Shown here one piece after another: positions 5,333 to 56,058 of a DNA stretch of 64,000 nucleotides. The stretch's first letter is position 1, and each line of letters begins with the position of its first letter. The notes below the pieces were generated by a model. That model saw nothing but the letters and a program-made list of their open reading frames with translations, did not search any database and had not been told where the DNA came from. The translations under genes and the position numbers were made by a program. Source of the stretch: Parcubacteria group bacterium LiPW_41 (GTDB lineage: Bacteria > Patescibacteriota > Minisyncoccia > UBA6257 > GWB1-50-10); the NCBI GenBank assembly GCA_007375535.1, contig VMEM01000001.1, positions 39,462 to 103,461 of the forward strand. Direction: 5' to 3'.

Positions 5333-5940
5333 TCAATTATCATTGTGCCAATCTCTCCCGCGTCCTCATGTCCTGGAAGATCACATCGAAACACAAATTC
5401 CCCCTTTCGGACCGCATAAAACTGAATTCCTCTTGATTCGTTAGGGCCCAAACTGATATTAACCGGGGAAAACAACTGGTCTTTAAATGCAAAGGAATGT
5501 GACTTTTTCCCACTATTTTCAAGTACAAACACCACCTGTTCCCCCTCTTTCACTGAAAATATTTTTGGAGAAAAACCTTTTTCATTAACCGTCATTTTTA
5601 CTACTCCATTTGGCAACTCTCCTTTTGGTAATGGAACCGAAGCTTGTGGTTGAGGAATATTTGTTGGATATGTTTGTATAGGCTCTCCATCTGAGGTTGG
5701 AGGAACATATGAATTTACTTCTTCCGAATTGTTTCCACTAATAAGGGCCTTAATTGGTGCAAAAAATGACAAATCAAACAAACTCTTTTTTTCCGTTGTT
5801 TGAGTTGATGAAAAATCTTTATTCTTTATTTTTGTAAGTTTGTCTTTGGGTACTACCGCAATAATGCTAAAAAACACAACACCAATAACAATGAGTCCGA
5901 CAAAAAGCAAAGTAATAATAAAACGAACTACATTTTGCAT
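5329..5940 (-). CDS. Hypothetical membrane-anchored protein, possibly with a cupredoxin-like C-terminal domain
   Basis: N-terminal TM helix. The C-terminal C-x4-H-x9-M spacing (FRCDLPGHEDAGEIGTM) is weakly type-1-copper-like. Confidence 0.4.
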   Translation of the reverse strand: MQNVVRFIITLLFVGLIVIGVVFFSIIAVVPKDKLTKIKNKDFSSTQTTEKKSLFDLSFFAPIKALISGNNSEEVNSYVPPTSDGEPIQTYPTNIPQPQASVPLPKGELPNGVVKMTVNEKGFSPKIFSVKEGEQVVFVLENSGKKSHSFAFKDQLFSPVNISLGPNESRGIQFYAVRKGEFVFRCDLPGHEDAGEIGTMIIE

Positions 5941-5997
5941 ACTATGTTTATTCTAACAAAATACACAATAACAAACTAATTTAATCTATTATTGTGT

Positions 5998-6267
5998 GCG
6001 CTCGGATACCCTTCGAGTCCTAAAATACAAATACAAAAAATCGCTCTTCGAGCGATATTTTGTATTTGTGCCCTCGTGAGGACTTTCCTCACCCGTCGCT
6101 TTCGCTCCTCCTTTGGAATCCTGGGTTCCTCGCTTCCGCTCATCCTCGACAAGCTCGGATTCGCTTTTCGCATTCGCGCGCTCGGATACCCTTCGAGTCC
6201 TAAAAATACAAATACAAAAAATCGCTCTTCGAGCGATATTTTGTATTTGTGCCCTCGTGAGGACTCG
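5998..6267 (-). repeat. tRNA-Arg trailer element, containing two 87-bp near-identical direct repeats
   Basis: The direct repeats are at 5998-6084 and 6178-6267. Each carries the last 17 nt of tRNA-Arg, a hairpin ACAAATACAAAA…TTTTGTATTTGT and an antisense T-arm (AGGACTCGAAGG). The 93-bp GC-rich spacer contains GAGCGAAAGCGACGG. Confidence 0.8.
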
Positions 6268-6321
6268 AACCTCAATTACGAGATCCGCAATCTCGCGTCC
6301 TATCCATTGAACGACGAGGGC
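6250..6321 (-). tRNA. tRNA-Arg, anticodon GCG as read
   Basis: Hand-folded cloverleaf with acceptor GCCCTCG/CGAGGGC, T-loop GGTTCGAGTCC and anticodon loop TTGCGGA. No encoded CCA. Confidence 0.75.
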
Positions 6322-6342
6322 GTAACATACACTTGTATGTTG

Positions 6343-6413
6343 TGCGGGCAAGGAGAATCGAACTCCTGTCTCAACCTTGGCAAGGTCGTGTTCTACCACT
6401 AAACCATGCCCGC
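6343..6413 (-). tRNA. tRNA-Gly(GCC)
   Basis: Cloverleaf with acceptor GCGGGCA/TGCCCGC, anticodon loop TTGCCAA and T-loop TTCGATT. Confidence 0.8.
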
Positions 6414-6458
6414 AAAACTATTTCTATTTAACACTAGAATACAAAAAAAATCCAGTTT

Positions 6459-6620
6459 TTATTGGGTAGGAGGTGGGCCGTACGGACCACGAACCGATGG
6501 TGGCCCAACTGGCCCCTTAAATGTCGTTTTTGGCTCCTCTGTTTTTTTAAAAACTGATGAAAAAATAAATAAAAGTATTATGCAAATACAAACAATAATC
6601 AAAAAAATAATTTTCTTCAT
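6459..6620 (-). CDS. Small secreted peptide with a signal peptide and a Gly/Pro-rich collagen-like tail (speculative)
   Basis: MKKIIFLIIVCICIILLFIFSSVF followed by KGPVGPPSVRGPYGPPPTQ. The competing plus-strand ORF overlaps tRNA-Gly. Confidence 0.3.
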   Translation of the reverse strand: MKKIIFLIIVCICIILLFIFSSVFKKTEEPKTTFKGPVGPPSVRGPYGPPPTQ

Positions 6621-6624
6621 ACAC

Positions 6625-7107
6625 TTAAAAACCAATAAAGTCTGCGAGAATACTCCCTGCAGTTTCTTCGTGTTCAATTTCAGGAAGATATTCCGCAAGA
6701 TATGGGCGAACTGACTTTAGTGTTATAACATCGATAGGGATATGAATATGTGGTTTTGTGTTTCCTCTCTGATGAATCACCAATTCATGGAGTTGGTTCA
6801 TACGCTCTCGAACAGAAAATGCAATAAGTTTTTCATATGGATATATTTTCTTTCCGATCCAAAGTCCTTGTTTATCCAAACGAAATTCATAAATAATAGG
6901 ACGTCGACGAGAAAAAGAAAAAAGTAAACCAGTTGCAGTAAGAATAAAAACAGCAAATAAAAAGTTTTTTTGCCACAAAGAAACAACAAAGAAGACGATT
7001 GCGACGAGACTGATGATAACATACCATCCAATTTCCTTTTCGCGATGTTCGTGTTCAGCGGCGCGCCACAACAATTCTTTTCGTTCTACTTTTTGTACTG
7101 GCTCCAT
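6625..7107 (-). CDS. Hypothetical membrane protein with 2 TM helices
   Basis: 160-aa ORF with two hydrophobic helices. No recognisable motif. Confidence 0.5.
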   Translation of the reverse strand: MEPVQKVERKELLWRAAEHEHREKEIGWYVIISLVAIVFFVVSLWQKNFLFAVFILTATGLLFSFSRRRPIIYEFRLDKQGLWIGKKIYPYEKLIAFSVRERMNQLHELVIHQRGNTKPHIHIPIDVITLKSVRPYLAEYLPEIEHEETAGSILADFIGF

Positions 7108-7124
7108 AATATATTTATTATAGT

Positions 7125-7156
7125 ATAAACCGCACAGTAATGTGCGGTTTATTTTG
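7125..7156. terminator. Hairpin AAACCGCACA/TGTGCGGTTT in the tRNA-Cys trailer
   Basis: Perfect 10-bp stem with a GTAA loop. Confidence 0.5.
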
Positions 7157-7228
<72 letters not shown>

Positions 7229-7242
7229 ATTATTATACTTTT

Positions 7243-7551
7243 TTATTTCGAATCTTCAGACTTCTCTGGTTCTACAATTTCAAATTTCAAATATGGCATC
7301 GGCTTTATATTGAGCTTTTTTAGGAGTTTAAACCTAATATCACTCGCCGCTCTTGAAACTATTTTATATACCTCCAAACTCTTTTCATACGGAATGATAC
7401 CAAGCTTTACATTCGCATGCAATAAATCCTTTTCAACTTCAGTCTCCATTATTGTTACTAAGGCTCCCTCAAAATTAAAATCACGAGAAAACATTTTTCC
7501 CAATTCTTCCGTGATTAATGACGATAGTTTTAGATCTCTAAATGGCCGCAT
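7243..7551 (-). CDS. rbfA: Ribosome-binding factor A
   Basis: RbfA-like sequence lying downstream of infB, as in the conserved gene order. Confidence 0.8.
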   Translation of the reverse strand: MRPFRDLKLSSLITEELGKMFSRDFNFEGALVTIMETEVEKDLLHANVKLGIIPYEKSLEVYKIVSRAASDIRFKLLKKLNIKPMPYLKFEIVEPEKSEDSK

Positions 7552-7568
7552 ATTTTGAATTAAATAAA

Positions 7569-9038
7569 TTAGTCTAGAAACACTAGATGATTTCCAATTC
7601 GTATATCTGATTCACACTCTACAAGCATTCCCACCTCCATGTCCTTCTCTGCTTCTGCAACATCCTTTTTATTTGATTGAAGATTGAGAATTCTTCCCTC
7701 TCCCGTTTTTCTCGTTCCATGCCACACTTCAAATGATTCATTTCTCAATATTGGACCACACAACACTTTTCCACCAATCACTCGCTCTTTTCCTTTTGGT
7801 TGTCCAAACACTCCAAGAATTTCAAGTGTTCTCTTTTCTTTTTCAATTGCGGTTTTTGCATATTCAGTAAGTGCATCAACAAGTTCATAAATAATATCTG
7901 AAGTAATAATATTTATTTTTTTTGTCTCACGCATGTTTTGAGCTGCTTTATCAATTTTTGTGTGAAACCCAATGATAGTTGCTTTCATCCCCTCTGCATC
8001 CTTTGTATCATTTTCAGTAATTGAACCAACAGAAGCTTTTATAATAATAATCGGAAGTGTAGTAACAAGTGATTCAATAGTATCTTTTAATACCTCAAGC
8101 GATCCAAGCTCATCTGCTTTCAAGAACAACGGAACCCTTTTTGATACATCATCTTCTGCAATCAAACTTTTTGTCACCTCGTGCTGTTCTCGTTCAAATT
8201 GTTCTAATGATGTACGGAGTACTTTCTCGTCTCTATGTGCACAAAATACCTCACCCACTTTTGGAGAATTTTCAAATCCAAATACAATTGCCGGTGCACT
8301 TGGAATTATTTCTTTTGCAGTTTTTCCTAAATAGTTTTCAAGTATTTTTACTTTTCCAATTGCAGTATGGGTTGCAATCATAGCTCCTTGCTCAAGTGAT
8401 CCATTTTTTACAATTACACTCGTCATCACACCACGTTTCGCATCCGATTTTACCGAAATGACAACGCCTGACGAAACATGATCTCCCGTACAATGGATAT
8501 CTTCAAGTTCTGATGCAAGAAGTAAAAGATCAAGTAGATCGGAAACACCCTCCCCTGTTTTTGCAGAAATTGCATGCCATGAAACATCCCCTCCTCGTCC
8601 CTCAAGATACACCCCTAATTGCATTAAATCATTAATTGCTTTATCAATATCTGCACCAGGTTTATCTATTTTGTTTATAGCAACAACAAATGGAACTTTT
8701 TCAGCAAGAATATATTTCAATGCATCTTTTGTTTGTGGTTTTACGCCATCATCTGCTGCTACAACTAAAATTGCTAAATCAGCAACACGTGCTCCACGAG
8801 CGCGCATCTTTGAAAATGCTTCATGTCCTGGTGTATCAATAAAAGTTATTTTTTGTCCCGCGTGTTCAATTTCGTATGCACCGATTGATTGAGTAATTCC
8901 TCCCGCCTCACGAAGTGCAACATTGGTACTTCGAATATAATCAAGTAATGTTGTTTTTCCATGATCAACATGACCCATAATAACCGCTATTGGCGGTCTT
9001 CGTTCTGGATTTTTTTGTTCTACTTTTTTGGGGGTCAT
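7569..9038 (-). CDS. infB: Translation initiation factor IF-2, short form without the long N-terminal region
   Basis: G-domain motif GHVDHGKTTLLD and a full IF-2 C-terminal domain architecture. Confidence 0.9.
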   Translation of the reverse strand: MTPKKVEQKNPERRPPIAVIMGHVDHGKTTLLDYIRSTNVALREAGGITQSIGAYEIEHAGQKITFIDTPGHEAFSKMRARGARVADLAILVVAADDGVKPQTKDALKYILAEKVPFVVAINKIDKPGADIDKAINDLMQLGVYLEGRGGDVSWHAISAKTGEGVSDLLDLLLLASELEDIHCTGDHVSSGVVISVKSDAKRGVMTSVIVKNGSLEQGAMIATHTAIGKVKILENYLGKTAKEIIPSAPAIVFGFENSPKVGEVFCAHRDEKVLRTSLEQFEREQHEVTKSLIAEDDVSKRVPLFLKADELGSLEVLKDTIESLVTTLPIIIIKASVGSITENDTKDAEGMKATIIGFHTKIDKAAQNMRETKKINIITSDIIYELVDALTEYAKTAIEKEKRTLEILGVFGQPKGKERVIGGKVLCGPILRNESFEVWHGTRKTGEGRILNLQSNKKDVAEAEKDMEVGMLVECESDIRIGNHLVFLD

Positions 9039-9059
9039 AATAATGGGAAAATACCTTCG

Positions 9060-9286
9060 AAAGTTGCTTCGCTTTGAAATAATTAAAAAATGTACATTTT
9101 TTAATATGTAGTCCCAAGGGGAATCCTTTCAACTAATCACTCGCCGTCGCTCGTGATTGTTTCAAGCCTGGGCTCACGGTGTATTCTACTGAATACACAT
9201 CGCTCCGCCCTTCGTTTCCCCACACGAAACAAGAAATTGTTTCGTTTTGGGATAATTAAAAAAATCTAAAAATTTTTTTAATCAGT
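9060..9286 (-). repeat. tRNA-Glu trailer element
   Basis: The distal end carries TAGTCCCAAGGGGAATC (9109-9125), a copy of the tRNA-Glu 3' end, with similar A/T hairpin flanks. The core contains GGGGAAACG, the hairpins GTGTATTC/GAATACAC and CGAAACAA/TTGTTTCG, and GAGCGACGGCGAG. Confidence 0.75.
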
Positions 9287-9356
9287 AGTCCCAAGGGGAA
9301 TCGAACCCCTATTTCCGCCGTGAAAGGGCGATGTCCTAACCGTTAGACGATGGGAC
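9287..9356 (-). tRNA. tRNA-Glu(UUC)
   Basis: Anticodon loop CTTTCAC and T-loop GGTTCGATTCC. Resembles canonical bacterial tRNA-Glu. Confidence 0.8.
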
Positions 9357-9367
9357 CAAACTGGGTG

Positions 9368-9454
9368 CGGAGGCGGAAGGATTCGAACCTTCGGAGGAGT
9401 TCCCCCCTCGACTTCTTAGCAGGAAGCCGCTTTCGACCGCTCAGCCACGCCTCC
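9368..9454 (-). tRNA. tRNA-Ser(GCU), type II
   Basis: Anticodon loop CTGCTAA, a long variable arm, discriminator G and acceptor GGAGGCG. Confidence 0.8.
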
Positions 9455-9571
9455 ACCCACATAACAGAGTGTACGATAAATATTCAATTTATTCAAGAAA
9501 CTAATACTTGGTAAACACATAATACTATCACGCTTTACGCGTCATCCTAATATAAGATATAATTTTTATAT

Positions 9572-10075
9572 ATGTCGAAGAGAAAGTGGACTCAAAAACA
9601 ACTCGAAGAAGCAATTAATTCTTCAACAAGCAATCGACAGGTTTTAAAAAAGTTGGGATTAAAGGAGGCGGGAGGAAATTATAGCCAAATAAAAAAATAC
9701 TCAAAAGAATTTAAAATCGATACTAGCCATTTCAAAGGTCAAGCGTGGAACAAAGGAAAGAAGGGACTAGGGAAGCCAAGAATCCCTTTATCAGAAATTT
9801 TGGTAGAAAATAGTAATTTCCAAAGTTTTAAATTAAAAAAAAGGTTATTTGCAGAAAAATTAAAATCTGAGTATTGTGAACACTGTGGGTGGGCAAAAAA
9901 ATCAAAAGATGGTAGGATTCCTCTTGAGCTCGATCATATAAATGGAAGAAGAAACGACAACAGAATAGAGAACCTTCGTATTCTTTGTCCAAATTGCCAC
10001 TCATTACAACCAACACATAGAGGTAAAAACATAAAGACTGCCCAGATGGCGGAACGGTATACGCGCAACACTTAA
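9572..10075 (+). CDS. HNH homing-endonuclease-like protein
   Basis: HNH motif CEHCGW…LELDHINGRRNDNRIENLRILCPNCHSL. The last 36 nt of the ORF overlap tRNA-Leu. Confidence 0.75.
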   Translation: MSKRKWTQKQLEEAINSSTSNRQVLKKLGLKEAGGNYSQIKKYSKEFKIDTSHFKGQAWNKGKKGLGKPRIPLSEILVENSNFQSFKLKKRLFAEKLKSEYCEHCGWAKKSKDGRIPLELDHINGRRNDNRIENLRILCPNCHSLQPTHRGKNIKTAQMAERYTRNT

Positions 10076-10122
10076 AATGTTGTGACCCAACGGTCTTGTG
10101 GGTTCGAATCCCACTCTGGGCA
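10040..10122 (+). tRNA. tRNA-Leu(UAA), type II
   Basis: Acceptor GCCCAGA/TCTGGGC, anticodon loop CTTAAAA and a long variable arm. Confidence 0.8.
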
Positions 10123-10350
10123 CAAATTCTACAACACCCTTCATGGGTGTTGTAGAATTTATTCATCAAGGGATTCGAAGGATATTCGAGCGCCCGAATG
10201 GGAAGAGTGAGTAAAATGAACGAAAGCGAGAAACCAAGGCTTCGGAGGAGGCACGAGAGTGCCGGAGGAGAAGAAATCCAACGTCGACCTACCAGTGAAT
10301 AAACCAAACACAAAACAATACCGCCAGTCCTTGGACTGGCGGTATTTTTA
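10123..10350 (+). repeat. tRNA-Leu trailer: terminator hairpin, a divergent GC-rich structured element, and a second terminator
   Basis: Hairpin TTCTACAACACCC/GGGTGTTGTAGAA, then the antisense T-arm AAGGGATTCGAAGG, GAACGAAAGCGAG, the hairpin GGCAC-GAGA-GTGCC, then ACCGCCAGTCC/GGACTGGCGGT with a T-run. Confidence 0.6.
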
Positions 10351-11001
10351 TTTTGCTTCTTTTTTTTCTTTCTTAAACAACTGATATGAATAAACAAAAA
10401 GTCCTATAATTCCGAAAATGAGTGGAATAAGAAACACAAGAAATGAGACAGTGGGAAATACAACACCAAGACATGCAACAACCCCTATAATTTTAAATAC
10501 TTTCCCTCCGAGTTTATGCGTTTTATCCCAAACCATTTCACTTGAAAGTGTCCATGGATTTCGAATACCCATAGTCCAATTCTGTTTTACCCGTTCAATA
10601 AGGAATCCCAATCCAATAAACAAGAAGCCAAAGAGAAACGGAAACACACGAGCGGGATCAATCCACGCTACAAGATTTGTTCCGATGATAAATAGTTGAA
10701 GGAGAAAAAAGAATGAACAGAGAAGAACAAGAAACGCATCATATATTCCCCTCATCTTTTCAATCACCTCTTTTTTTGGATCAAAATGGGGTACTGCAAC
10801 AAGAATTATGAGTAATACAAGTAAGATAATTGGAACAAATAAAATACCCCACAACTTCGACATGTATCCATTTACTTCCCCCATCGCCCCCCAGTGCGAC
10901 GCAATCTCGTCGGGAAGTACTGGGTAAAAATAAACCCCAACAAGTAGCGAGAGAACAATAATACCTAATGAAATTGCTACACCTTTAGTAAAAATCTTCA
11001 T
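10348..11001 (-). CDS. SdpI/YhfL-family membrane protein
   Basis: DUF1648-like YPVLPDEIASHW and the SdpI motif GIRNPWTLSSEMVWDKTH. Multi-TM. Confidence 0.7.
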   Translation of the reverse strand: MKIFTKGVAISLGIIVLSLLVGVYFYPVLPDEIASHWGAMGEVNGYMSKLWGILFVPIILLVLLIILVAVPHFDPKKEVIEKMRGIYDAFLVLLCSFFFLLQLFIIGTNLVAWIDPARVFPFLFGFLFIGLGFLIERVKQNWTMGIRNPWTLSSEMVWDKTHKLGGKVFKIIGVVACLGVVFPTVSFLVFLIPLIFGIIGLFVYSYQLFKKEKKEAK

Positions 11002-11063
11002 AATTTCTATTATAGTACCACCTACTACACAAAAATTAAATTGTCTGATATTCTAATCCAGTT

Positions 11064-11151
11064 GGAAGGTTGGCAGAGTGGTCGAATGCGCCGCACTTGA
11101 AATGCGGTATGCCGAAAGGCATCGGAGGTTCGAATCCTCCACCTTCCGCCA
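11064..11151 (+). tRNA. tRNA-Ser(UGA), type II, with encoded CCA
   Basis: Acceptor GGAAGGT/ACCTTCC, anticodon loop CTTGAAA, a long variable arm, and an encoded 3' GCCA. Confidence 0.8.
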
Positions 11152-11155
11152 ACAT

Positions 11156-11190
11156 AAAAAGTACACCACTTGGTGTACTTTTTATGTTTT
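11156..11190. terminator. Hairpin AGTACACCA/TGGTGTACT with A/T flanks
   Basis: Perfect 9-bp stem. Confidence 0.6.
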
Positions 11191-11372
11191 TGATGTGTGG
11201 ATTCGAACCGCAGGCTCCCTATTTTCTTAGTGAGCGAAGCGAGCTTAGAAAATAGCAGTGTCGCACATTGTGCGACCCGCAGTCATTATTTGAGAACGTA
11301 GGTCTCGAGTTCAGCAGAACGAGAGGAGAATCACTAACTTGTAAGCTCATTCATGCGATATATAATTGCTAG
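11186..11372 (+). repeat. Degenerate trailer-element copy after tRNA-Ser(UGA)
   Basis: Begins with the antisense T-arm GTGGATTCGAACC. Contains GTGAGCGAAGCGAGC, the hairpin GTCGCAC att GTGCGAC, and GGTCTCGAG. Confidence 0.45.
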
Positions 11373-11921
11373 GTGCAATACATAACATTTTTCTTTCTCA
11401 TTATCACACTCCTAGTTATTACTGGAGTCATTTATTCACTTTGGCGACTCTTGTTTAAAAAGAATCATGCTCCATTCATCCCAATCCCACATGACGCAAT
11501 TCCGTCACTTGTGGAACATGCTGACATAAATAAAGGAGATGTTGTGTATGATCTTGGGTGTGGAGATGCACGAATACTAAAAATATTAGCGAAAAAATAT
11601 TCTGATGCTCAATTCATAGGAATTGAAAAGGCATTATTCCCCTATATAATTGCAAAAATTTCTTCACTTCGATTTCCAAATATAACAATACGACGAAAAA
11701 ATTTCTTTAAGATACCAATTGCAAATGCAACAGTAGTGATAACCTATTTATTTCCAAGCGTTATGGATCTTTTGCTTCCAAAATTTGAAAAAGAACTTCA
11801 CAACACAAAACTCCTCTCATTTGATTTTCCCTTCTCAAAAAAAGAATATGAAACAATGTATGTAATAAAGGAGCGACAAGGGAAACTTGGATCAAAGATA
11901 TTTATATACCGATTTGAATAA
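11373..11921 (+). CDS. Class I SAM-dependent methyltransferase with an N-terminal TM anchor
   Basis: Motif I VVYDLGCGDARIL. Confidence 0.65.
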   Translation: MQYITFFFLIITLLVITGVIYSLWRLLFKKNHAPFIPIPHDAIPSLVEHADINKGDVVYDLGCGDARILKILAKKYSDAQFIGIEKALFPYIIAKISSLRFPNITIRRKNFFKIPIANATVVITYLFPSVMDLLLPKFEKELHNTKLLSFDFPFSKKEYETMYVIKERQGKLGSKIFIYRFE

Positions 11922-12070
11922 AAAATTGTTTTAGCGTATCATTTCACCATATAATATGAATAAGAAAAATAAACTTGCAAAAAAGAAACATTCGAAGAAA
12001 GCAGGAAAAAAGATAAATTTGCGCGCTCGATAAAACTTTATAAAAAACACCCCACAATTGTGGGATGTTT

Positions 12071-12676
12071 TTATTTATACAACTCACAGATCGCATCAAT
12101 CTGTTTATGCAAATATTCTCCGCGCCACTTATCCTTTTTAGGTAATCGTTTTGTGAGCAATGAAACAAGTGGTAATAAATGATTGCGCGTCTCCTCAATC
12201 TGAGTTTTTTGTTTTTCTCTTGTGCAGTTTTTCAATGTTCGAAGATTATGTAATCGATCACACAACTTCACTAAAATTGTTTTGTTGTCTCCATATATTG
12301 AAAGTCGCTTGAAATAACCTTCTTTTGGTTTCTTTGTAAGAAGTTTCAATCCAATAACTACTTCCTTTCCAAAATTTAACTCAATTCGATACGGAGAAAG
12401 GATGTGTGAATCCTCTAGCACGTCGTGTAACAATGCCATAATAATTGTCTGCGCATCATTCACCTTCAATTCTTCTATTAAAATATGAGCAACTGATTTT
12501 GGATGTTCAAAATATCGGGTCCCGTCGTCTCTCTCTTGGCCACGATGTCCATATTTTGAAAGAATATACGCAGTCTCAATTGCCTCAAGTTCTTTTGGAG
12601 ACATTATTGGCTCCAACTTTGCCATAAACTCCACACGACCAAGATCAATGTATCCATCAGTGTTTGGCTGCTTCAT
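12071..12676 (-). CDS. HD-domain hydrolase of the RelA/SpoT type, similar to the small alarmone hydrolases
   Basis: HD motif LLHDVLED and the downstream DRLHNLRTL. Confidence 0.65.
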   Translation of the reverse strand: MKQPNTDGYIDLGRVEFMAKLEPIMSPKELEAIETAYILSKYGHRGQERDDGTRYFEHPKSVAHILIEELKVNDAQTIIMALLHDVLEDSHILSPYRIELNFGKEVVIGLKLLTKKPKEGYFKRLSIYGDNKTILVKLCDRLHNLRTLKNCTREKQKTQIEETRNHLLPLVSLLTKRLPKKDKWRGEYLHKQIDAICELYK

Positions 12677-12700
12677 TGTTATTAGTATAATTGAGAACTA

Positions 12701-13885
12701 TTAATCAATCACCTCCCTTCTTAGCCGTTCAGGAATTCTAACGAGAATCTCATAAGGGATCGTTCCACACAAACCCGCTATAGAAGTGACAGAGTTTTTA
12801 TTTGATAACTCCTTACTTATCACACAGACCTCGTCTTCCTCTTTTATATTGAAAACTGAAGACACATCAACACTCACCATATTCATACTCACCCTCCCAA
12901 TAATTGAGCAAACGATATTTTGAATATAAATTGTACCAGAGTTAGAAAGTCGACGATCAATACCCTCAAAATATCCAACAGGAATTATTGCGATTTTCAT
13001 TTCTTGATTGGCGGAAAATGTTGCATTATATCCGACAAAATCACCTCGTTTTATTGTTTTAATTCCTACAACCACCGAAAACATCTCAAGCGCAGGAATG
13101 AGGTTTAATTTCCTTTCAGGAACCGGATCAAACCCATATAAACCAATCCCAAGACGAACAACATTTGCATCAAATTGCTTTATATATTGAGTTCCCGCTG
13201 TCGCGCTGATATGGAAATAGCGAATAGCATTAAACTTCGAACGAAATATTGGAACAACGGTGTTCCAAATAGTCTTTTGTCTCTCTACATGTAAGGAATT
13301 TTCAACATCAGCATCAGCAAGATGAGAACAGACTCCATCGATATTGATGTTTTTATTTGATTGAATAAGAGAAATGACATAATCAATATCTTCATATCGA
13401 ATTCCTTGCCGATTCATGCCGGTATCACACTTAATATGAAATATTTGTGGTTGTTTTAATGTTTCAGCAATTTCTCGTACTTGATGTGGAGTAGAAAGTG
13501 TAAAAATAATATTTTTATCGGTATTTTTTATAATATTTGATAAAAATGAATATCCTATCACTAGTATTGGTGTTTTAATATTTTCATTGCGAAGCATAAG
13601 TGCCTCATAGTATGAATCAACGACAAAAAATGGGACGCTTTTTTCGTCAAGAATTTTTGCAACAGGAATTAATCCATGTCCATACGCATTACTTTTTAAC
13701 ACTGGAGCAATCTTTATATCAGATTGTATATTTGAAAACACCTCATAATTATGAAGTAACGCTGATCGAGAAATCTTAATACGCACCAACGGCTCATAAT
13801 CAGTTAATGATTTTCTAAATTTACGAATAAAGTTTCGAAGAAAAACGAGCATATTATTATATATTATTTTCGCTCTCAAACTCAT
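12701..13885 (-). CDS. alr: Alanine racemase
   Basis: PLP-lysine motif VLKSNAYGHG. Confidence 0.85.
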   Translation of the reverse strand: MSLRAKIIYNNMLVFLRNFIRKFRKSLTDYEPLVRIKISRSALLHNYEVFSNIQSDIKIAPVLKSNAYGHGLIPVAKILDEKSVPFFVVDSYYEALMLRNENIKTPILVIGYSFLSNIIKNTDKNIIFTLSTPHQVREIAETLKQPQIFHIKCDTGMNRQGIRYEDIDYVISLIQSNKNINIDGVCSHLADADVENSLHVERQKTIWNTVVPIFRSKFNAIRYFHISATAGTQYIKQFDANVVRLGIGLYGFDPVPERKLNLIPALEMFSVVVGIKTIKRGDFVGYNATFSANQEMKIAIIPVGYFEGIDRRLSNSGTIYIQNIVCSIIGRVSMNMVSVDVSSVFNIKEEDEVCVISKELSNKNSVTSIAGLCGTIPYEILVRIPERLRREVID

Positions 13886-14660
13886 GATATTCTAAATCAA
13901 ACTGGAAATTATTTTTAAAGTATTCTTTTGTCTCCTCAATGGTTGTAAATCCCAACTCATTTTTTCCACTAAACAAATCAAAATAGGCATCTCTATATTT
14001 TTGCAACTTAAACGGGATTTTTTTTGGATCTACATCCCCGCACCGATTCATCTCAATCCATCCATTTTTCGAATATATTCTTTCTCTATTTTTTCCACTA
14101 ACACTCTCATTTATTTGGTTTTCACTTAAAAATATCTGAAGATCTCCCTCACTCGGCAAAACTCCTTTATTAAAAAGAATAGGAAGATTTTCTTGCTTTT
14201 CTTTATCAAGCTCAAACGCATCAAGAAAATCTGGATGCGAGTGCGCATAAAAAAATCCATTATTCTTTTTACCAACACCATGAGTACGCGCCCCAACAGA
14301 AAAAAAGAAAACAGAGTCGCCAACTTTTTCAACTGCTAATTCATATTGATTTTTTTTCCTAACAAACTCTTCAAAAATAGTATTCACCAATAAATTTTCT
14401 TTTGTCTCGACAAAAAAACCAACTTGGTCTTTTGTATAATTTGGAACATTTGGTAGTAAGGCCCAAATATCTTCTACATTTTTCTCCCTAAGTGGGCCTT
14501 CAATACTTGAAACGGGAAGTTTTTGTTTCCACAAATCAAACTCATTTTTTTCTTCTTCTGAATATTTTCCTAATCCAGATTTTTCCATGAGTTTCTTTAC
14601 TTGAACTTCTTTTTCAATATTAGGAGGAAACATTGGAAACTGATCAAACTTTTGTTTCAT
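13857..14660 (-). CDS. Hypothetical protein
   Basis: 267-aa ORF whose stop overlaps the alr start. No recognisable motif. Confidence 0.45.
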   Translation of the reverse strand: MKQKFDQFPMFPPNIEKEVQVKKLMEKSGLGKYSEEEKNEFDLWKQKLPVSSIEGPLREKNVEDIWALLPNVPNYTKDQVGFFVETKENLLVNTIFEEFVRKKNQYELAVEKVGDSVFFFSVGARTHGVGKKNNGFFYAHSHPDFLDAFELDKEKQENLPILFNKGVLPSEGDLQIFLSENQINESVSGKNRERIYSKNGWIEMNRCGDVDPKKIPFKLQKYRDAYFDLFSGKNELGFTTIEETKEYFKNNFQFDLEYHEFESENNI

Positions 14661-14782
14661 TATTCAATAATAGAAGAACCTGTGAATTTAGCCAACGAAA
14701 TAGGTTGTGGTGTTCTATCAGGTGTAAAACCCTAAAAAAGTAAAATGACCTACTGGGATTGCACAGATGCTCATTGTTTTTG

Positions 14783-14853
14783 TGGACCTACGGGGAGTCG
14801 AACCCCGACTTAGCGCATGCCATGCGCTTATTCTACCATTGAATTATAGGCCC
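14783..14853 (-). tRNA. tRNA-Ala(GGC)
   Basis: G3:U70 in the acceptor (GGGCCTA/TAGGTCC), anticodon loop ATGGCAT and T-loop GGTTCGACTCC. Confidence 0.8.
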
Positions 14854-15530
14854 ATATTTTTTCTTAATATTTCAAAGATAACTAAAAATTCATTAAAAAT
14901 ATTAGCAGAAAAATAATCTATTCGACACACGCCTTTATAATTCATTTTTCGTGATTTTTTATTAATAGAACGAGGATCAACTCGCGCTTTATAAAAACAA
15001 GATAAAGGAATATTAGTCAGCTTCGACCAAAAAATTTCCAACTTTTCGATGTTTTGATCATCCCTACACTGTAGGGTACACCTAAACTTACTCTCGTCAA
15101 CCTCATAACAACTCCTTAAAAGATTTAGAAATAATTTAATAATTAATGGATCAGAGTTGCCAATGGTAATACTCCCCTTTTTTGTTTTAGATCCCTCAGC
15201 TAAATAAAGCATAGCAAGAGTAATTTTTTTTGTTTTTTTGTCGTTTAATTCACCAATAACCCACTTATTTTCATTTAATAAATTTTCTAGGTATTTTTTT
15301 CTTTTCTCTTTTTTTACTTCCAGTGCTTTCTGTCTCGCCACCTTCAAATCTTTTACTCGTTTTGTTTCTAATTTTTGTTTTTGAAGATTTGAAAGTTCTA
15401 TACCTTTTAACCAAAATGAAATCGTACTTTTTGGAATGTTGGAACCAAGTGCTCTATTAATTTGCAGAAATGAATAACCCTTTTTTCTCAGGGCTATCAC
15501 ACGTTCTCTCATATTTTTTTGGGTGCTCAC
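14844..15530 (-). CDS. LAGLIDADG-family homing-endonuclease-like protein with an N-terminal HTH
   Basis: Single LAGLIDADG motif LAMLYLAEGSK. Its stop overlaps the 5' end of tRNA-Ala by 10 nt. Confidence 0.7.
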   Translation of the reverse strand: MSTQKNMRERVIALRKKGYSFLQINRALGSNIPKSTISFWLKGIELSNLQKQKLETKRVKDLKVARQKALEVKKEKRKKYLENLLNENKWVIGELNDKKTKKITLAMLYLAEGSKTKKGSITIGNSDPLIIKLFLNLLRSCYEVDESKFRCTLQCRDDQNIEKLEIFWSKLTNIPLSCFYKARVDPRSINKKSRKMNYKGVCRIDYFSANIFNEFLVIFEILRKNMGL

Positions 15531-15569
15531 TATTCAATTGTACCACAGAAGTCATCCATGTCCAAAAAT

Positions 15570-15755
15570 TTTGTGGGCGATAAGGAATCGAACGTCGTCT
15601 CATCAGAATGAGACTCCCACGAACCCAGCGGTTCGTGCGCTCCGCCACTGGGAAACTCCCGTTTCCCCGACCCCTTTCCCAGTTCGAGTCCTGTATATCA
15701 CAAGATATAAAAACAACGCATTTGCTTTAGAAATAGTGCATTGTTTTTATCTATG
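15570..15755 (-). repeat. tRNA-Val(GAC) trailer element
   Basis: In tRNA orientation: a terminator hairpin, the antisense T-arm ATACAGGACTCGAAC, GGGAAAGGGGTCGGGGAAACGGGAGTTTCCC, the hairpins CACGAACC/GGTTCGTG and GTCTCAT/ATGAGAC, and a sense end GTTCGATTCCTTATCGCCCAC. Confidence 0.75.
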
Positions 15756-15829
15756 TGGGCGATACAGGACTCGAACCTGTGACCTTTACAATGTCAATGT
15801 AACGCTCTAACCAGCTGAGCTAATCGCCC
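15756..15829 (-). tRNA. tRNA-Val(GAC)
   Basis: Acceptor GGGCGAT, anticodon loop TTGACAT and T-loop GGTTCGAGTCC. Confidence 0.8.
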
Positions 15830-15834
15830 TTATA

Positions 15835-16155
15835 TTATTTTTCCTTCTTTTCTTTTTTCAATTCTTTCACCGCTTCAGTAAGTGAAACATCAGGATGTTT
15901 TGCAACCGCCTCAAGCATATCTGCAAGCTTCACATATCCGTCATTGAGTGGAAGCTCTTTAGCCTTCATAAACCAATGCTTCTTTTTTCCTCCATCGGCT
16001 TTTTCCAGCTCCAACGCAATCATATCTGGCGTCTCATCATTCTTTAATTTCCTCCCGAGATCTGCCTCTGTTTTTTCAAAGCGTTTATATACTTCTTTTT
16101 TATCCTCCTTCTTCAATTTGTCCATGCCAAAGCTGAAGTGATCAAACATAATCAC
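15835..16155 (-). CDS. Hypothetical small charged protein
   Basis: 106-aa ORF, Lys/Glu-rich. Confidence 0.4.
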   Translation of the reverse strand: MIMFDHFSFGMDKLKKEDKKEVYKRFEKTEADLGRKLKNDETPDMIALELEKADGGKKKHWFMKAKELPLNDGYVKLADMLEAVAKHPDVSLTEAVKELKKEKKEK

Positions 16156-16224
16156 ATAATACCTGAGACATAAAAAAATACAAATCTTTACTCTAATCTA
16201 AGATTAATCTATAAATAGACAGAA

Positions 16225-16296
16225 GCCCTTGTAGTTCAACGGATAGAACAGTGCCGTCCTAAGGCGAAGATGGGAGTTCGATTCTCTCCAAGGGCA
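16225..16296 (+). tRNA. tRNA-Arg(CCU)
   Basis: Acceptor GCCCTTG/CAAGGGC, anticodon loop GTCCTAA and T-loop GTTCGATTC. Confidence 0.75.
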
Positions 16297-16300
16297 CATA

Positions 16301-16387
16301 GGAGGGGTGGCTGAGTGGTCGAAGGCACACGACTCGAAATCGTGCAGGGGTGAAAGCCCCTCGAGAGTTCAAATCTCTCCCCCTCCG
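16301..16387 (+). tRNA. tRNA-Ser(CGA), type II
   Basis: Acceptor GGAGGGG/CCCCTCC, anticodon loop CTCGAAA, a long variable arm and discriminator G. Confidence 0.8.
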
Positions 16388-16590
16388 CTAATATCAAAAC
16401 AATACACTTCATGTGTATTGTTTTATATTCGGAGAGATTTAAACGGGAAAGGGGTCGGGAAAACGGAAGTTTTCCCGTGGTGGAAGTACTGAAACCGCAA
16501 GGTGTCAGAAAATTTCGTCTGCGAAATTTTGTTCAATTCCCTCCCCCTCCACAAACAAAAAACACCATACAAAGTGGTGTTTTTAATTTT
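16388..16590 (+). repeat. tRNA-Ser(CGA) trailer element
   Basis: A terminator hairpin, the antisense T-arm GGAGAGATTTAAAC, GGGAAAGGGGTCGGGAAAACGGAAGTTTTCCCG, TGGTGGAAG, the hairpin CTGAAACC-GCAA-GGTGTCAG, a pseudo-anticodon arm ATTTCG-TCTG-CGAAAT, the sense end GTTCAATTCCCTCCCCCTCCAC, and a second terminator. Confidence 0.8.
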
Positions 16591-17257
16591 TTTCATTTTT
16601 CACAATATTTCCATCAAACAGTGTTATTACTCGATCAGTATACTGCACATATTCTGGTTCGTGGGTAACCATAATTATTGTTTGCCCATCTGCGTGCAAT
16701 TCTTTAAATGTTTTCAAAATAGAAATAGACGTGTCATTATCAAGATTTGCTGTTGGTTCGTCAGCAAATAATATTTTCGGATTGTGTCCCATTGCACGAG
16801 CAATAGAAACACGTTGTTGTTCTCCTCCGGAAAGCTGATTGGGAAGATTATTAAACTTTTCTTTTAGTTCAACGCGCTCTAACACTCTTGCTGATATTTT
16901 TCTTGCGTCAATTTTATTTATTCCTTGTTCCAAAAGTGGAATCATTACATTTTCAATCGCATTCAATTCTGGAATAAGTGCATAATCTTGAAACACATAT
17001 CCAAGTTGAAATAGTCGTAATATGGTCCGCTCCCTATCAGTTAATATGTCTGTGTTCTTCCCTCCAATCTCAATGGTTCCTGACGTTGGTCGATCAAGAA
17101 GACTCAACTGATACATAAGAGTACTTTTTCCAGAACCCGAACGCCCAATGATTGAAATAAATTCTCCGTCGTCAACATCAAAATCAACTCCTTTTAAAAC
17201 GGTGAGCTCTGAGTTTCCACTTTTGAATTTTTTTATGATTTTTCTTGCTTGTATCAT
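16583..17257 (-). CDS. ABC transporter ATP-binding protein of the FtsE/LolD/MacB type
   Basis: Walker A GRSGSGKST and ABC signature LSGGEQQR. Confidence 0.85.
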   Translation of the reverse strand: MIQARKIIKKFKSGNSELTVLKGVDFDVDDGEFISIIGRSGSGKSTLMYQLSLLDRPTSGTIEIGGKNTDILTDRERTILRLFQLGYVFQDYALIPELNAIENVMIPLLEQGINKIDARKISARVLERVELKEKFNNLPNQLSGGEQQRVSIARAMGHNPKILFADEPTANLDNDTSISILKTFKELHADGQTIIMVTHEPEYVQYTDRVITLFDGNIVKNEKN

Positions 17258-55841: not shown

Positions 55842-56058
55842 CACAATAAAACATCATATTTCTCAATATGATGTTTTTGTATGAGGGGATTGAACAAGAA
55901 GGGGTGTTGGGGAAACGTTTGTTTCCCCATGGAGGAAGTATTGAAACCGAGTGGTTTCAAAGCGCAGTCTCGCCCGCAAGACGAGCAGTGAAATTTCCCC
56001 TCAACGCCCACACAAAAACAAAAACATCCTTTTCTAGGATGTTTTTGTTTTCTATTTT
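55842..56058 (+). repeat. tRNA-Val(UAC) trailer element
   Basis: Terminator AAAACATCATAT/ATATGATGTTTT, the perfect antisense T-arm GAGGGGATTGAAC, GGGGAAACGTTTGTTTCCCC, TGGAGGAAG, the hairpin TTGAAACC-GAGT-GGTTTCAA, GTCTCG…CGAG, a 20-nt copy of the tRNA 3' end TCCCCTCAACGCCCACACAA (56004-56023), and a second similar terminator. Confidence 0.8.

Follow-up and report, generated by a model that had tools for sequence, protein, structure and literature searches.

ORF-less, guide-bearing elements at the 3' ends of tRNA and other conserved genes in Patescibacteria: a probable family of insertion elements that duplicate the gene end they interrupt

The DNA analyzed here is a stretch of 64,000 nucleotides (nt) from Parcubacteria group bacterium LiPW_41 (contig VMEM01000001.1, positions 39,462 to 103,461 of the forward strand; hereafter the window), in which the tRNA-Ser(CGA) gene is followed by a short structured element. 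A preliminary description of the window had reported a structured family at the 3' ends of tRNA transcription units; this family exists, and it extends far beyond the window. It probably represents insertion (homing) elements specific to Patescibacteria that lack an open reading frame (ORF), carry a guide and duplicate the end of the gene that they interrupt. The layout of the elements, the complementarity of guide and target, the folded structure, the spread across the candidate phyla radiation (CPR), the insertion polymorphism and the re-addressing of the guide can be read directly from the sequences compared below; what we infer from them is a role of the guide in directing insertion, activity of the element as RNA, and the whole of the chemistry. 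Searches of the searchable literature by topic and with literal sequence strings returned no description of the element, in agreement with the preliminary description, which knew of none; the one related paper found deals with group I introns in anticodon loops.

Architecture of the Element Downstream of tRNA-Ser(CGA) and of Its Relatives in the Window

An ARAGORN scan of the window predicted 13 tRNAs, grouped in nine units. Downstream of tRNA-Ser(CGA), all parts that the preliminary description had assigned to the element are present where, and in the order in which, it had placed them (Table 1). The guide CGGAGAGATTTAAAC is complementary to the tRNA stretch GTTCAAATCTCTCC, with one mismatch within that stretch. 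The core consists of J1 (GGGAAAGGGGUC), hairpin HP1, J2 (GUGGUGGAAG) and the hairpins HP2 and HP3, the last of subtype i. The sense copy X2 (GTTCAATTCCCTCCCCCTCCAC) is identical to the tRNA 3' end (positions 53-74) at 19 of 22 positions; the three substitutions include the discriminator base, and a T-stem mismatch is also present.

A 28-position pattern derived from this type-A core has exactly three matches in the window (16457, 15641 on the minus strand, and 55909), compared with 0.01 in shuffled sequence. The covariance model scores these three cores at 89, 79 and 69 bits and the rest of the window at 13 bits or less. Pattern and model thus find precisely the copies that the preliminary description had placed after tRNA-Val(UAC) and tRNA-Val(GAC), plus the Ser(CGA) copy itself. 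The guide of the Val(GAC) copy, ATACAGGACTCGAAC (15696-15682), pairs with its tRNA at 15 of 15 positions, and that of the Val(UAC) copy, TGAGGGGATTGAAC (55882-55895), at 14 of 14. In the former, X2 (15593-15572) has a 1-nt deletion; in the latter, X2 (55996-56012) is identical to the tRNA end over 17 of 17 positions, and T1 and T2 are mutually related.

The elements after tRNA-Glu, tRNA-Arg(GCG), tRNA-Leu and tRNA-Ser(UGA) had been taken for divergent copies of the same core. They do share its layout, but their cores belong to other families, which we name types B, C and D. The Glu element has its guide TGGGGAAACGAA at 9222-9211 and an X2 (9125-9108) that is identical to the tRNA end at 18 of 18 positions. 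At the Arg(GCG) site the guide AGGACTCGAA (6201-6192) and an X2 (6084-6068; 17 of 17 identical) are followed by a partial second unit, which brings the total to about 1.4 tandem copies. No recognizable X2 is left at the type-D element of Ser(UGA). In all, an antisense T-arm and/or a direct repeat of the tRNA's own 3' end follows the last tRNA in seven of the nine units, the same number as counted before; neither is present downstream of the Cys-GCA and Ala-GGC units. Direct repeats in the window measure 10-18 nt.

Table 1. Features of the Ser(CGA) element and of its relatives in the window
Feature	Position	Strand	Remarks
tRNA-Ser(CGA)	16301-16388	+	upstream host gene of the exemplar element
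X1	16367-16388	+	target segment, tRNA-Ser(CGA) position 53 to 3' end; still the functional tRNA end
T1	16396-16424	+	hairpin with flanking A and T runs, between tRNA and guide
Guide CGGAGAGATTTAAAC	16430-16444	+	antisense of X1 start (T-loop/3' T-stem); abuts core directly
Type-A core	16445-16530	+	covariance model R1 score 89 bits
J1 GGGAAAGGGGTC	16445-16456	+	
HP1 hairpin GGGAAAAC-GGAA-GTTTTCCC	16457-16476	+	
J2 GTGGTGGAAG	16477-16486	+	
HP2 hairpin CTGAAACC-GCAA-GGTGTCAG	16489-16508	+	
HP3 hairpin AAAATTTCG-TCTG-CGAAATTTT	16509-16530	+	subtype i
X2 GTTCAATTCCCTCCCCCTCCAC	16531-16552	+	sense copy, direct repeat of X1; original flank comes next
T2	16558-16584	+	second terminator; original terminator of the tRNA unit, orthologous to the lone L126 terminator
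Type-A copy after tRNA-Val(GAC)	15572-15696	-	subtype ii; 79 bits
Type-A copy after tRNA-Val(UAC)	55882-56012	+	subtype iii; 69 bits
Type-C element after tRNA-Glu	9108-9262	-	5' hairpin, guide, GGGCGGAGCG plus hairpins, X2
Type-B element after tRNA-Arg(GCG)	5998-6201	-	guide, X2, partial second unit
Type-B element after tRNA-Leu(UAA)	10170-10295	+	guide GGGATTCGAA; X2 degenerate
Type-D element after tRNA-Ser(UGA)	11199-11330	+	guide GGATTCGAACC; core resembles that of L093 at tRNA-Arg

The Guide Follows the Intact Gene End

Homologs of the core, which the preliminary description had expected in related genomes if the element were genuine, are common: an exact scan of one genome per GTDB species located type-A cores at no fewer than 119 loci across Patescibacteria. 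In the loci retrieved (numbered L001 onward), the parts generally follow one another as u, X1, hairpin or terminator, guide, core, X2 and original flank. The elements measure 110-200 nt and are devoid of ORFs, with a type-A core of about 85-100 nt. X usually runs from tRNA position 53 to the 3' end, alternatives including the 3' end of rpsI or uvrB. In about 70 of 113 type-A copies, X2, which immediately follows the core, recurs upstream for 16-89 nt, and in the longest repeats X1 extends to the guide; 47 type-A copies repeat 12 nt or more out of the last 24 nt of the tRNA without a mismatch. Because X is duplicated, the physical insert could be any cyclic permutation of X-hairpin-guide-core.

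The guide is contiguous and reverse-complementary to the 10-26 nt with which X begins. Its helix with the target ends 0-1 nt from the core, and in most tRNA copies the duplication starts at precisely this point, G53 of the tRNA. Junction nucleotides are conserved on neither side, and the core ends in U, C or A. The mean duplex score of the guides was 10.7 with the upstream host sequence, 7.5 with X2 and 5.7 for shuffled guides, and pairing with the upstream sequence beat pairing with X2 in 80 of 101 copies. Positions 1-11 of the guide:X1 helix are Watson-Crick paired in 91-100% of cases, each with all four pair types and with almost no G.U; the corresponding range for guide:X2 is 46-82%. In about one fifth of the copies X2 opens with GUGA, not GUUC, which sets tandem A.G/G.A opposite the core-proximal end of the guide. 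Guides scored 11.5 against their own tRNA versus 6.6 against non-cognate tRNAs. An antisense T-arm match of at least 9 nt lies within 170 nt downstream of 57 of the 153 tRNAs in the fetched loci, compared with 10 in the mismatched control.

These data revise the notion that the element has tRNA-derived inverted ends: they are not terminal inverted repeats, and in each copy the antisense segment is a guide of its own, with a better match to the host gene upstream than to the repeat downstream. Since the guide tracks the functional copy while X2 drifts, it may have to recognize an intact target, as expected for homing, and not merely close an RNA stem; the position of the junction at the end of the helix beside the core, together with the avoidance of wobble pairs, likewise suggests recognition of an intact target.

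Empty Sites, Exchanged Occupants, and Tandem Copies

Presence/absence polymorphism at orthologous tRNA loci, which had been put forward as a sign of mobility, is found in the form of empty sites in L126, L139, L136, L125 and L127. The Ser(CGA) site, occupied by type A in the window, consists in L126 (neighboring ABC protein 96% identical) of the tRNA, 5 nt, one terminator and the ABC gene. The lone L126 terminator is orthologous to T2 of the window; the insert therefore comprises about 166 nt, with X2 and T2 representing the original end. T1 is new relative to the empty site and is thus part of the inserted DNA, and the same tRNA ends in L126 with exactly the sequence of the window X1. In L127/L128 (94%) the site holds a type-B element with a 17-nt X2 and a short-chain dehydrogenase (SDR) gene between X1 and guide; in L125 (88%) it holds a 5-kb island with CD-NTase, EcoRV and methyltransferase genes.

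The Val(UAC) site carries type A in the window, is empty in L139 (FtsH 80%) and L136 (96%), and carries type C in L137 (93%) and L138 (89%). The core of the latter closely matches that of the window tRNA-Glu copy, with the guide swapped to fit tRNA-Val. At the Val(GAC) site about 900 nt are inserted ahead of tRNA-Ala in the window; in L125 and L127, where the site is empty, tRNA-Ala follows 8-37 nt downstream. Tandem or partial second units were seen not only at Arg-GCG of the window but also in L086, where two different cores are joined, and at other loci. The hairpins between X1 and guide differ among related copies. Near-identical cores (at least 93% identity) at different tRNAs, which would be a sign of very recent jumps, were not found, and the fetched loci hold no long-range X1...X2 pairs that enclose kilobases beside type-A cores.

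Several assemblies of the window species have contigs that end at an element, and assemblies built from short reads appear to be fragmented by these elements. In four independent cases (L002-L005), the assembly of this species stops about 75-345 nt past the ABC gene, a distance that falls within or at the Ser-CGA element. In the species group of the window, the region 3' of tRNA-Ser(CGA) is a hot spot of integration: the L125 island (10676-15947) contains genes for a CD-NTase (resembling cyclic-oligonucleotide-based antiphage signaling systems, CBASS), an EcoRV-type endonuclease, a D12 methyltransferase/LexA-like protein and helix-turn-helix (HTH) proteins, and in L127/L128 (10700-11850) the short-chain dehydrogenase gene is enclosed by X1 and the type-B core.

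Core Families, Targets, and Distribution

Taxon labels, which are those of the submitters of the metagenome-assembled genomes, include Saccharibacteria, many Parcubacteria lineages, Microgenomates, Berkelbacteria and Kazan among the type-A matches listed; one short type-A contig had been binned as Syntrophaceae. Roughly half of the type-A copies listed have a same-strand tRNA upstream, representing 16 amino-acid specificities, and in nearly all tRNA-linked copies HP1 starts 13-90 nt past the tRNA. The core pattern has no match in IMG/VR, and blastn searches against phage and plasmid collections were likewise negative.

Type B is present at the Arg-GCG and Leu sites of the window and at Ser-CGA of L127/L128, and thus at Arg, Leu and Ser sites. 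Type C was found at Glu in the window and in L026, at Val-UAC in L137/L138, at Trp in L088 and at Gln in L074, and type D at Ser-UGA of the window and at Arg of L093; divergent forms of type A were also seen in the fetched loci. In every core family the guide abuts the core, and X2, where still recognizable, comes next.

Targets are not confined to tRNA genes. Type-A elements sit at the last codons of the gene for ribosomal protein S9 (rpsI) in five syntenic loci (L015, L032, L055, L117, L118), where the differences between X1 and X2 are mostly synonymous and X2 is conserved between two diverged genomes. In L080 the target is the 3' end of uvrB (UVR domain); X1/X2 differences are synonymous here as well, and the reading frame continues into the element. 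Further gene ends serve as X in other type-A loci. Among the explanations offered in the preliminary description, a miniature tRNA-targeting mobile element with a target duplication fits best, because empty sites exist, different families occupy one site, one family occupies several tRNAs, tandem copies occur and non-tRNA genes are targeted; this last point contradicts the restriction to tRNAs.

The same observations bear on the proposal that the element is a cis-acting trailer RNA of the host that serves the tRNA operon and has spread by duplication, be it for 3' processing, as a termination back-up, for quality control of read-through transcripts via T-arm pairing, or as a decoy attachment site. 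In the window the element always follows the last tRNA of its unit in the same orientation and lies between two terminators; pairing with the guide can make the T-arm inaccessible in a read-through transcript (the predicted fold of 16366-16511 has z = -5.1), and the element is frequent in a streamlined genome, with a core that is strongly conserved across phyla. Yet the same tRNA is bare in relatives whose neighboring proteins are 80-96% identical, or is followed by an unrelated core; the tRNA next to the 96%-identical protein lacks the element, and the Cys and Ala tRNAs of the window have none. Partial tandem copies and a cargo gene exist, and a duplication of the target would serve none of the functions listed. 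A pure host function is unlikely, given that near-identical relatives have empty sites and that protein genes are targeted as well, and we regard the trailer as a quite improbable explanation of the family.

Simple decay of tRNA duplicates had been dismissed in the preliminary description, and rightly so, as the elements constitute a conserved structured family across Patescibacteria. Decayed duplicates, or a tRNA on the opposite strand, were rejected here for want of the 5' half of the T-stem and of acceptor pairing.

The Type-A Core Has the Covariation of a Structured RNA

In an alignment of 76 distinct type-A copies (A2), 96.6% of the cells pair, compared with 85% in shuffles. Cells with both sides changed number 170, against 53 in shuffles, and the covariation score is 0.339 versus 0.123; neither value was reached in any of 500 shuffles, and slid registers scored 0.02-0.10. 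The covariation anticipated for a genuine structured element is therefore present, and with compensatory changes beyond those given by shuffling the type-A core behaves as a structured RNA. One HP1 pair alternates between A-U (42 copies) and G-C (31), with G.U in two copies, and four pairs of HP2 occur with three to four Watson-Crick types each. Mutual information revealed a tertiary pair as well: over a long range, the N of UGGNGGA is Watson-Crick paired with nucleotide 4 of the HP2 loop (C-G in 43 copies, U-A in 15, A-U in 4). Alignment columns 43/44 mirror the HP2 pairs 51-65/50-66, a relation that could reflect base triples or lineage linkage.

The invariance of HP1 and UGGNGGA is partly built in by the exact search pattern; J1 (GGGAARGGGGUC) and the AACCG...GGU part of HP2 lie outside that pattern and are nevertheless conserved to at least 90%. 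Read on the tRNA-sense strand, the HP1 loops are mostly GNRA-like. These loops, the co-orientation with the host gene and the terminators favor a sense RNA; the active strand and the active molecule, RNA or single-stranded DNA, are assigned putatively.

Search for a Partner Protein

All-against-all clustering of 1530 ORFs within 2.5 kb of 120 copies yielded no shared family except for the rplM-rpsI synteny of one orthologous insertion, and Pfam searches with the neighbors of non-tRNA copies identified housekeeping genes only. A LAGLIDADG-like ORF adjoins X2 of the Val-GAC copy and is also present in L062; such HTH-LAGLIDADG-like ORFs accompany four of the approximately 119 element loci, among the matches listed. 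None of the seven loci fetched around three homologs of this ORF contains a match to the type-A model, and the association of the neighboring endonuclease-like ORF with the RNA elements is weak.

These genes could nonetheless point to another origin, in which the element would be the passenger of a homing endonuclease or the scar of an integrase island. The repeats would then be protein-made attachment (att)-type or repair junctions and the core arm or recognition DNA, the candidate proteins being those of the HTH-LAGLIDADG-like and HNH genes beside tRNAs, or an integrase whose gene lies elsewhere. Integrase insertion is classically recognized by direct repeats of a tRNA 3' end; the tRNA-Ser(CGA) flank has the 5-kb defense island in L125 and the cargo gene in L127, and an HNH ORF lies by tRNA-Leu just as the LAGLIDADG-like ORF lies by the Val-GAC X2. 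An integrase, however, was found in none of the loci, and the endonuclease-like ORFs are as rare as described above. Protein-binding arms would not be expected to show compensatory hairpin changes and a tertiary pair, and a copy-specific antisense segment is foreign to att sites. We consider this origin very improbable; scars of integrase att sites in particular were rejected as a poor fit with the covariation and the copy-specific guides.

The HNH ORF of the window (9572-10075, plus strand) is free-standing (phrog_10822, E = 3e-46), and its 3' end overlaps the 5' end of tRNA-Leu(UAA), making it a second endonuclease gene against the 5' side of a tRNA. Its match to the IscB model is weak and partial (25 bits against a cut-off of 175).

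How the Elements May Insert

In the reading that we favor, that of guide-bearing homing elements, each copy sits toward the 3' end within a conserved gene, most often a tRNA gene at position 52/53. The replacement gene end (X1) keeps the host gene intact, while the displaced original gene end (X2) would follow the core and slowly decay. The element would be transcribed together with the host gene, its core would fold, and the guide would base-pair with the intact target in an unoccupied allele, or once more in an occupied one. The joining point would be set by the core-proximal end of the guide:target helix. Joining may be carried out by the RNA itself, by a trans-acting protein, or through recombination involving a copy with X; our order of preference is, first, a trans-acting protein that the core recruits, second, a ribozyme with read-through transcripts as its substrate, and third, recombination of circular or tandem copies via X. 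Re-insertion into the still-intact u, X1 site would produce tandem copies of the kind seen.

Several points weigh against this reading. X2 has been kept for a long time in some copies, as in the rpsI copies of L032 and L118, which simple decay fails to predict, and the joint resetting of guide and X for a new target is left without an explanation. Genes for a transposase, integrase, reverse transcriptase (RT) or nuclease do not recur near the copies in any consistent way. The near-invariance of the type-A core across phyla could be compatible with a function that benefits the host. The hairpins show 13 G.U versus 8 A.C, counts that do not by themselves settle the active strand, and the sample of at least 119 loci stems from a single exact pattern, so that frequencies derived from it are biased.

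A specific, protein-free version of the homing reading is an intron-like ribozyme. A small catalytic core would use the guide to form a P1-like helix with X1, and then with X2, in read-through transcripts; the RNA would excise X1-hairpin-guide-core and reverse-splice it into an intact target to give u-X1-...-core-X2. The guide is indeed positioned like an internal guide sequence, immediately 5' of a conserved core, the junction coincides with the end of the guide:target helix, and the inserted block opens with the copy of the downstream 'exon', as reverse splicing would give (T1 being foreign and T2 original). Tertiary covariation is typical of complex folds, protein partners are missing near the copies, and many X2 start with GUGA or with an inserted GAAAG, which results in tandem G.A pairs opposite the core-proximal end of the guide. 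Moreover, Patescibacteria host many group I introns (PMC13011429). On the other hand, the core is small, its layout is common to at least four different cores, and the lack of a conserved nucleotide at either junction extends to the last core position. Rfam 15 at the gathering threshold recognized only tRNAs in the window, and searches with E values up to 10 (15500-16650) and up to 0.5 (5800-15900) returned no ribozyme or intron family, the HDV-like/theta, hammerhead, twister, hatchet and pistol ribozymes being among the families covered. In several copies, furthermore, a spliced X2 could not yield a working tRNA, given the 1-nt deletion of Val-GAC and the changed discriminator and T-stem mismatch of Ser-CGA. 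An intron-like ribozyme thus seems unlikely to us.

A broader claim is that the elements represent a new class of RNA-guided, possibly protein-free mobile elements, in which a folded RNA of about 100 nt with a 5' guide inserts into conserved gene ends at the point where the guide:target helix stops, carries a spare gene end, and has its guide rewritten from each new target. We advance it tentatively, as a possibility somewhat less doubtful than the ribozyme but short of probable. Were it true, the elements would be a minimal programmable insertion system that is widespread in Patescibacteria.

Relation to Known Systems

By analogy, the element may work like a blend of tRNA-targeting integrative elements, guide-using mobile RNAs, and structural-RNA parasites (R2) that are co-transcribed with their hosts, yet it does not belong to any of these systems by the features that can be tested for each. 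Like tRNA-targeting phages, integrative and conjugative elements and islands, it inserts at the T-arm/3' end, provides a spare gene end and a distal direct repeat, and can carry cargo (L127). It differs from them in its size of 110-200 nt, the absence of an integrase, repeats of 16-89 nt, the guide, the covarying core and the protein-gene targets; the direct repeat of the tRNA 3' end is present, but no recombinase gene lies inside the insert.

With introns of groups I and II the element shares a guide beside a structured core that pairs with the insertion site, and a preference for conserved positions of essential genes. Unlike them, it matches no intron model, its core is merely about 85-100 nt long, and the gene end is duplicated, so that the host is independent of splicing; in addition, pairing is 3' of the junction, and the conserved G of a group I 3' junction is missing.

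The obligate mobile element-guided activity (OMEGA) RNAs of IscB/TnpB and the bridge/seek RNAs of IS110/IS1111 are likewise structured RNAs of mobile elements with a programmable segment that matches their own target. Here, in contrast, the only guide is a long one that runs antisense to the flank upstream, the duplication is long, and no IscB, TnpB or IS110 recombinase is adjacent. No iscB, isrB or tnpB lies beside the copies, an OMEGA guide is sense to its flank, and neither HEARO nor any other Rfam model matches the element. The comparison with bridge RNA, made by description, shows no adjacent DEDD recombinase and one contiguous guide of 10-26 nt; a bridge RNA would have two internal loops, each with short split guides, for target and donor.

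The 5' hepatitis delta virus (HDV)-like ribozyme of R2 and the theta ribozymes resemble the element in that they are promoter-less and co-transcribed with a structural RNA, with a P1 that is partly host sequence or a position directly 3' of a tRNA; theta (HDV-like) ribozymes occur downstream of phage tRNAs (PMC10879173). The element, however, lacks an HDV-like fold, an Rfam match and a reverse transcriptase, its guide measures 10-26 nt, and its target is duplicated; an HDV-like fold could not be mapped onto it. Repetitive extragenic palindromes (REP) and bacterial interspersed mosaic elements (BIME), Correia elements, RUP and other miniature inverted-repeat transposable elements (MITEs) are also short, ORF-less, multi-copy and structured, reside in 3' flanks and break assemblies. 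They differ from the element, which has a copy-specific antisense address and neither terminal inverted repeats nor a short fixed duplication: the inverted repeat here is formed by the 5' segment of the element with host DNA, and duplications vary between 16 and 89 nt. Retrons, diversity-generating retroelements (DGRs) and other RT-linked non-coding RNAs do not fit either, as there is no RT near the copies and the X1/X2 differences, including those at Ser(CGA), are not adenine-specific; a template/variable repeat pair of the DGR kind was rejected on the same grounds. An IS91-type GTTC/GAAC target was rejected because it is missing at non-tRNA copies.

If the guide directs insertion, the elements would represent a new way for mobile DNA or RNA to locate essential genes and to settle in them safely, combining within about 150 nt, and without any gene, an address of the intron, OMEGA or bridge type with the spare-end trick of tRNA phages. 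Types A-D would then join the candidate catalytic or protein-recruiting RNA folds. The elements would account for breaks of Patescibacteria assemblies at tRNA loci, and would make the tRNA genes of these minimal genomes hubs of selfish elements, beside introns in the anticodon loop and endonuclease genes in the 5' flank. A short insertion module that can be re-addressed would be of interest to genome engineers. Saccharibacteria are naturally competent and can be cultivated on their hosts, which makes the model testable.

Variants of the Type-A Element Away From tRNA Genes and a Likeness to Type C

A subclass of type A in Saccharibacteria (L008, L033, L037, L049, L050, L070, L077, L102, L103, L108, L116 and others) forms multi-copy units of 250-300 nt that are located away from tRNAs. 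On the 5' side of the core these units have a built-in target-guide hairpin (CCCCG...CGGGG, with complementary flanking arms), which recurs on the 3' side as a second, compensated copy. Many copies start right after TAA/TTAA, and contigs often terminate inside the unit. Another variant that is not linked to tRNAs (L017, L020, L024, L031, L083, L012, L087, and two copies in L096) has GGAGG-rich hairpins on either side (tgtctcccttaggagggag ... GACGGGGGAGGGTGGA). The two copies in L096 are oppositely oriented and flank a gene for a YgjP-like peptidase; the other neighbors of this variant are housekeeping genes.

HP1 of the type-A core at Ser(CGA) (16457-16476; GGGGAAAC...GUUUCCCC, directly 5' of GUGGCGGA) is similar to the helix that guide and target form in the type-C element at tRNA-Glu, whose guide GGGGAAACGAA (9211-9222) stands directly 5' of GGGCGGA and has GAUUCCCC as its target. 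Judging by this likeness, type A may have descended from a type-C-like element whose guide helix turned into an internal hairpin.

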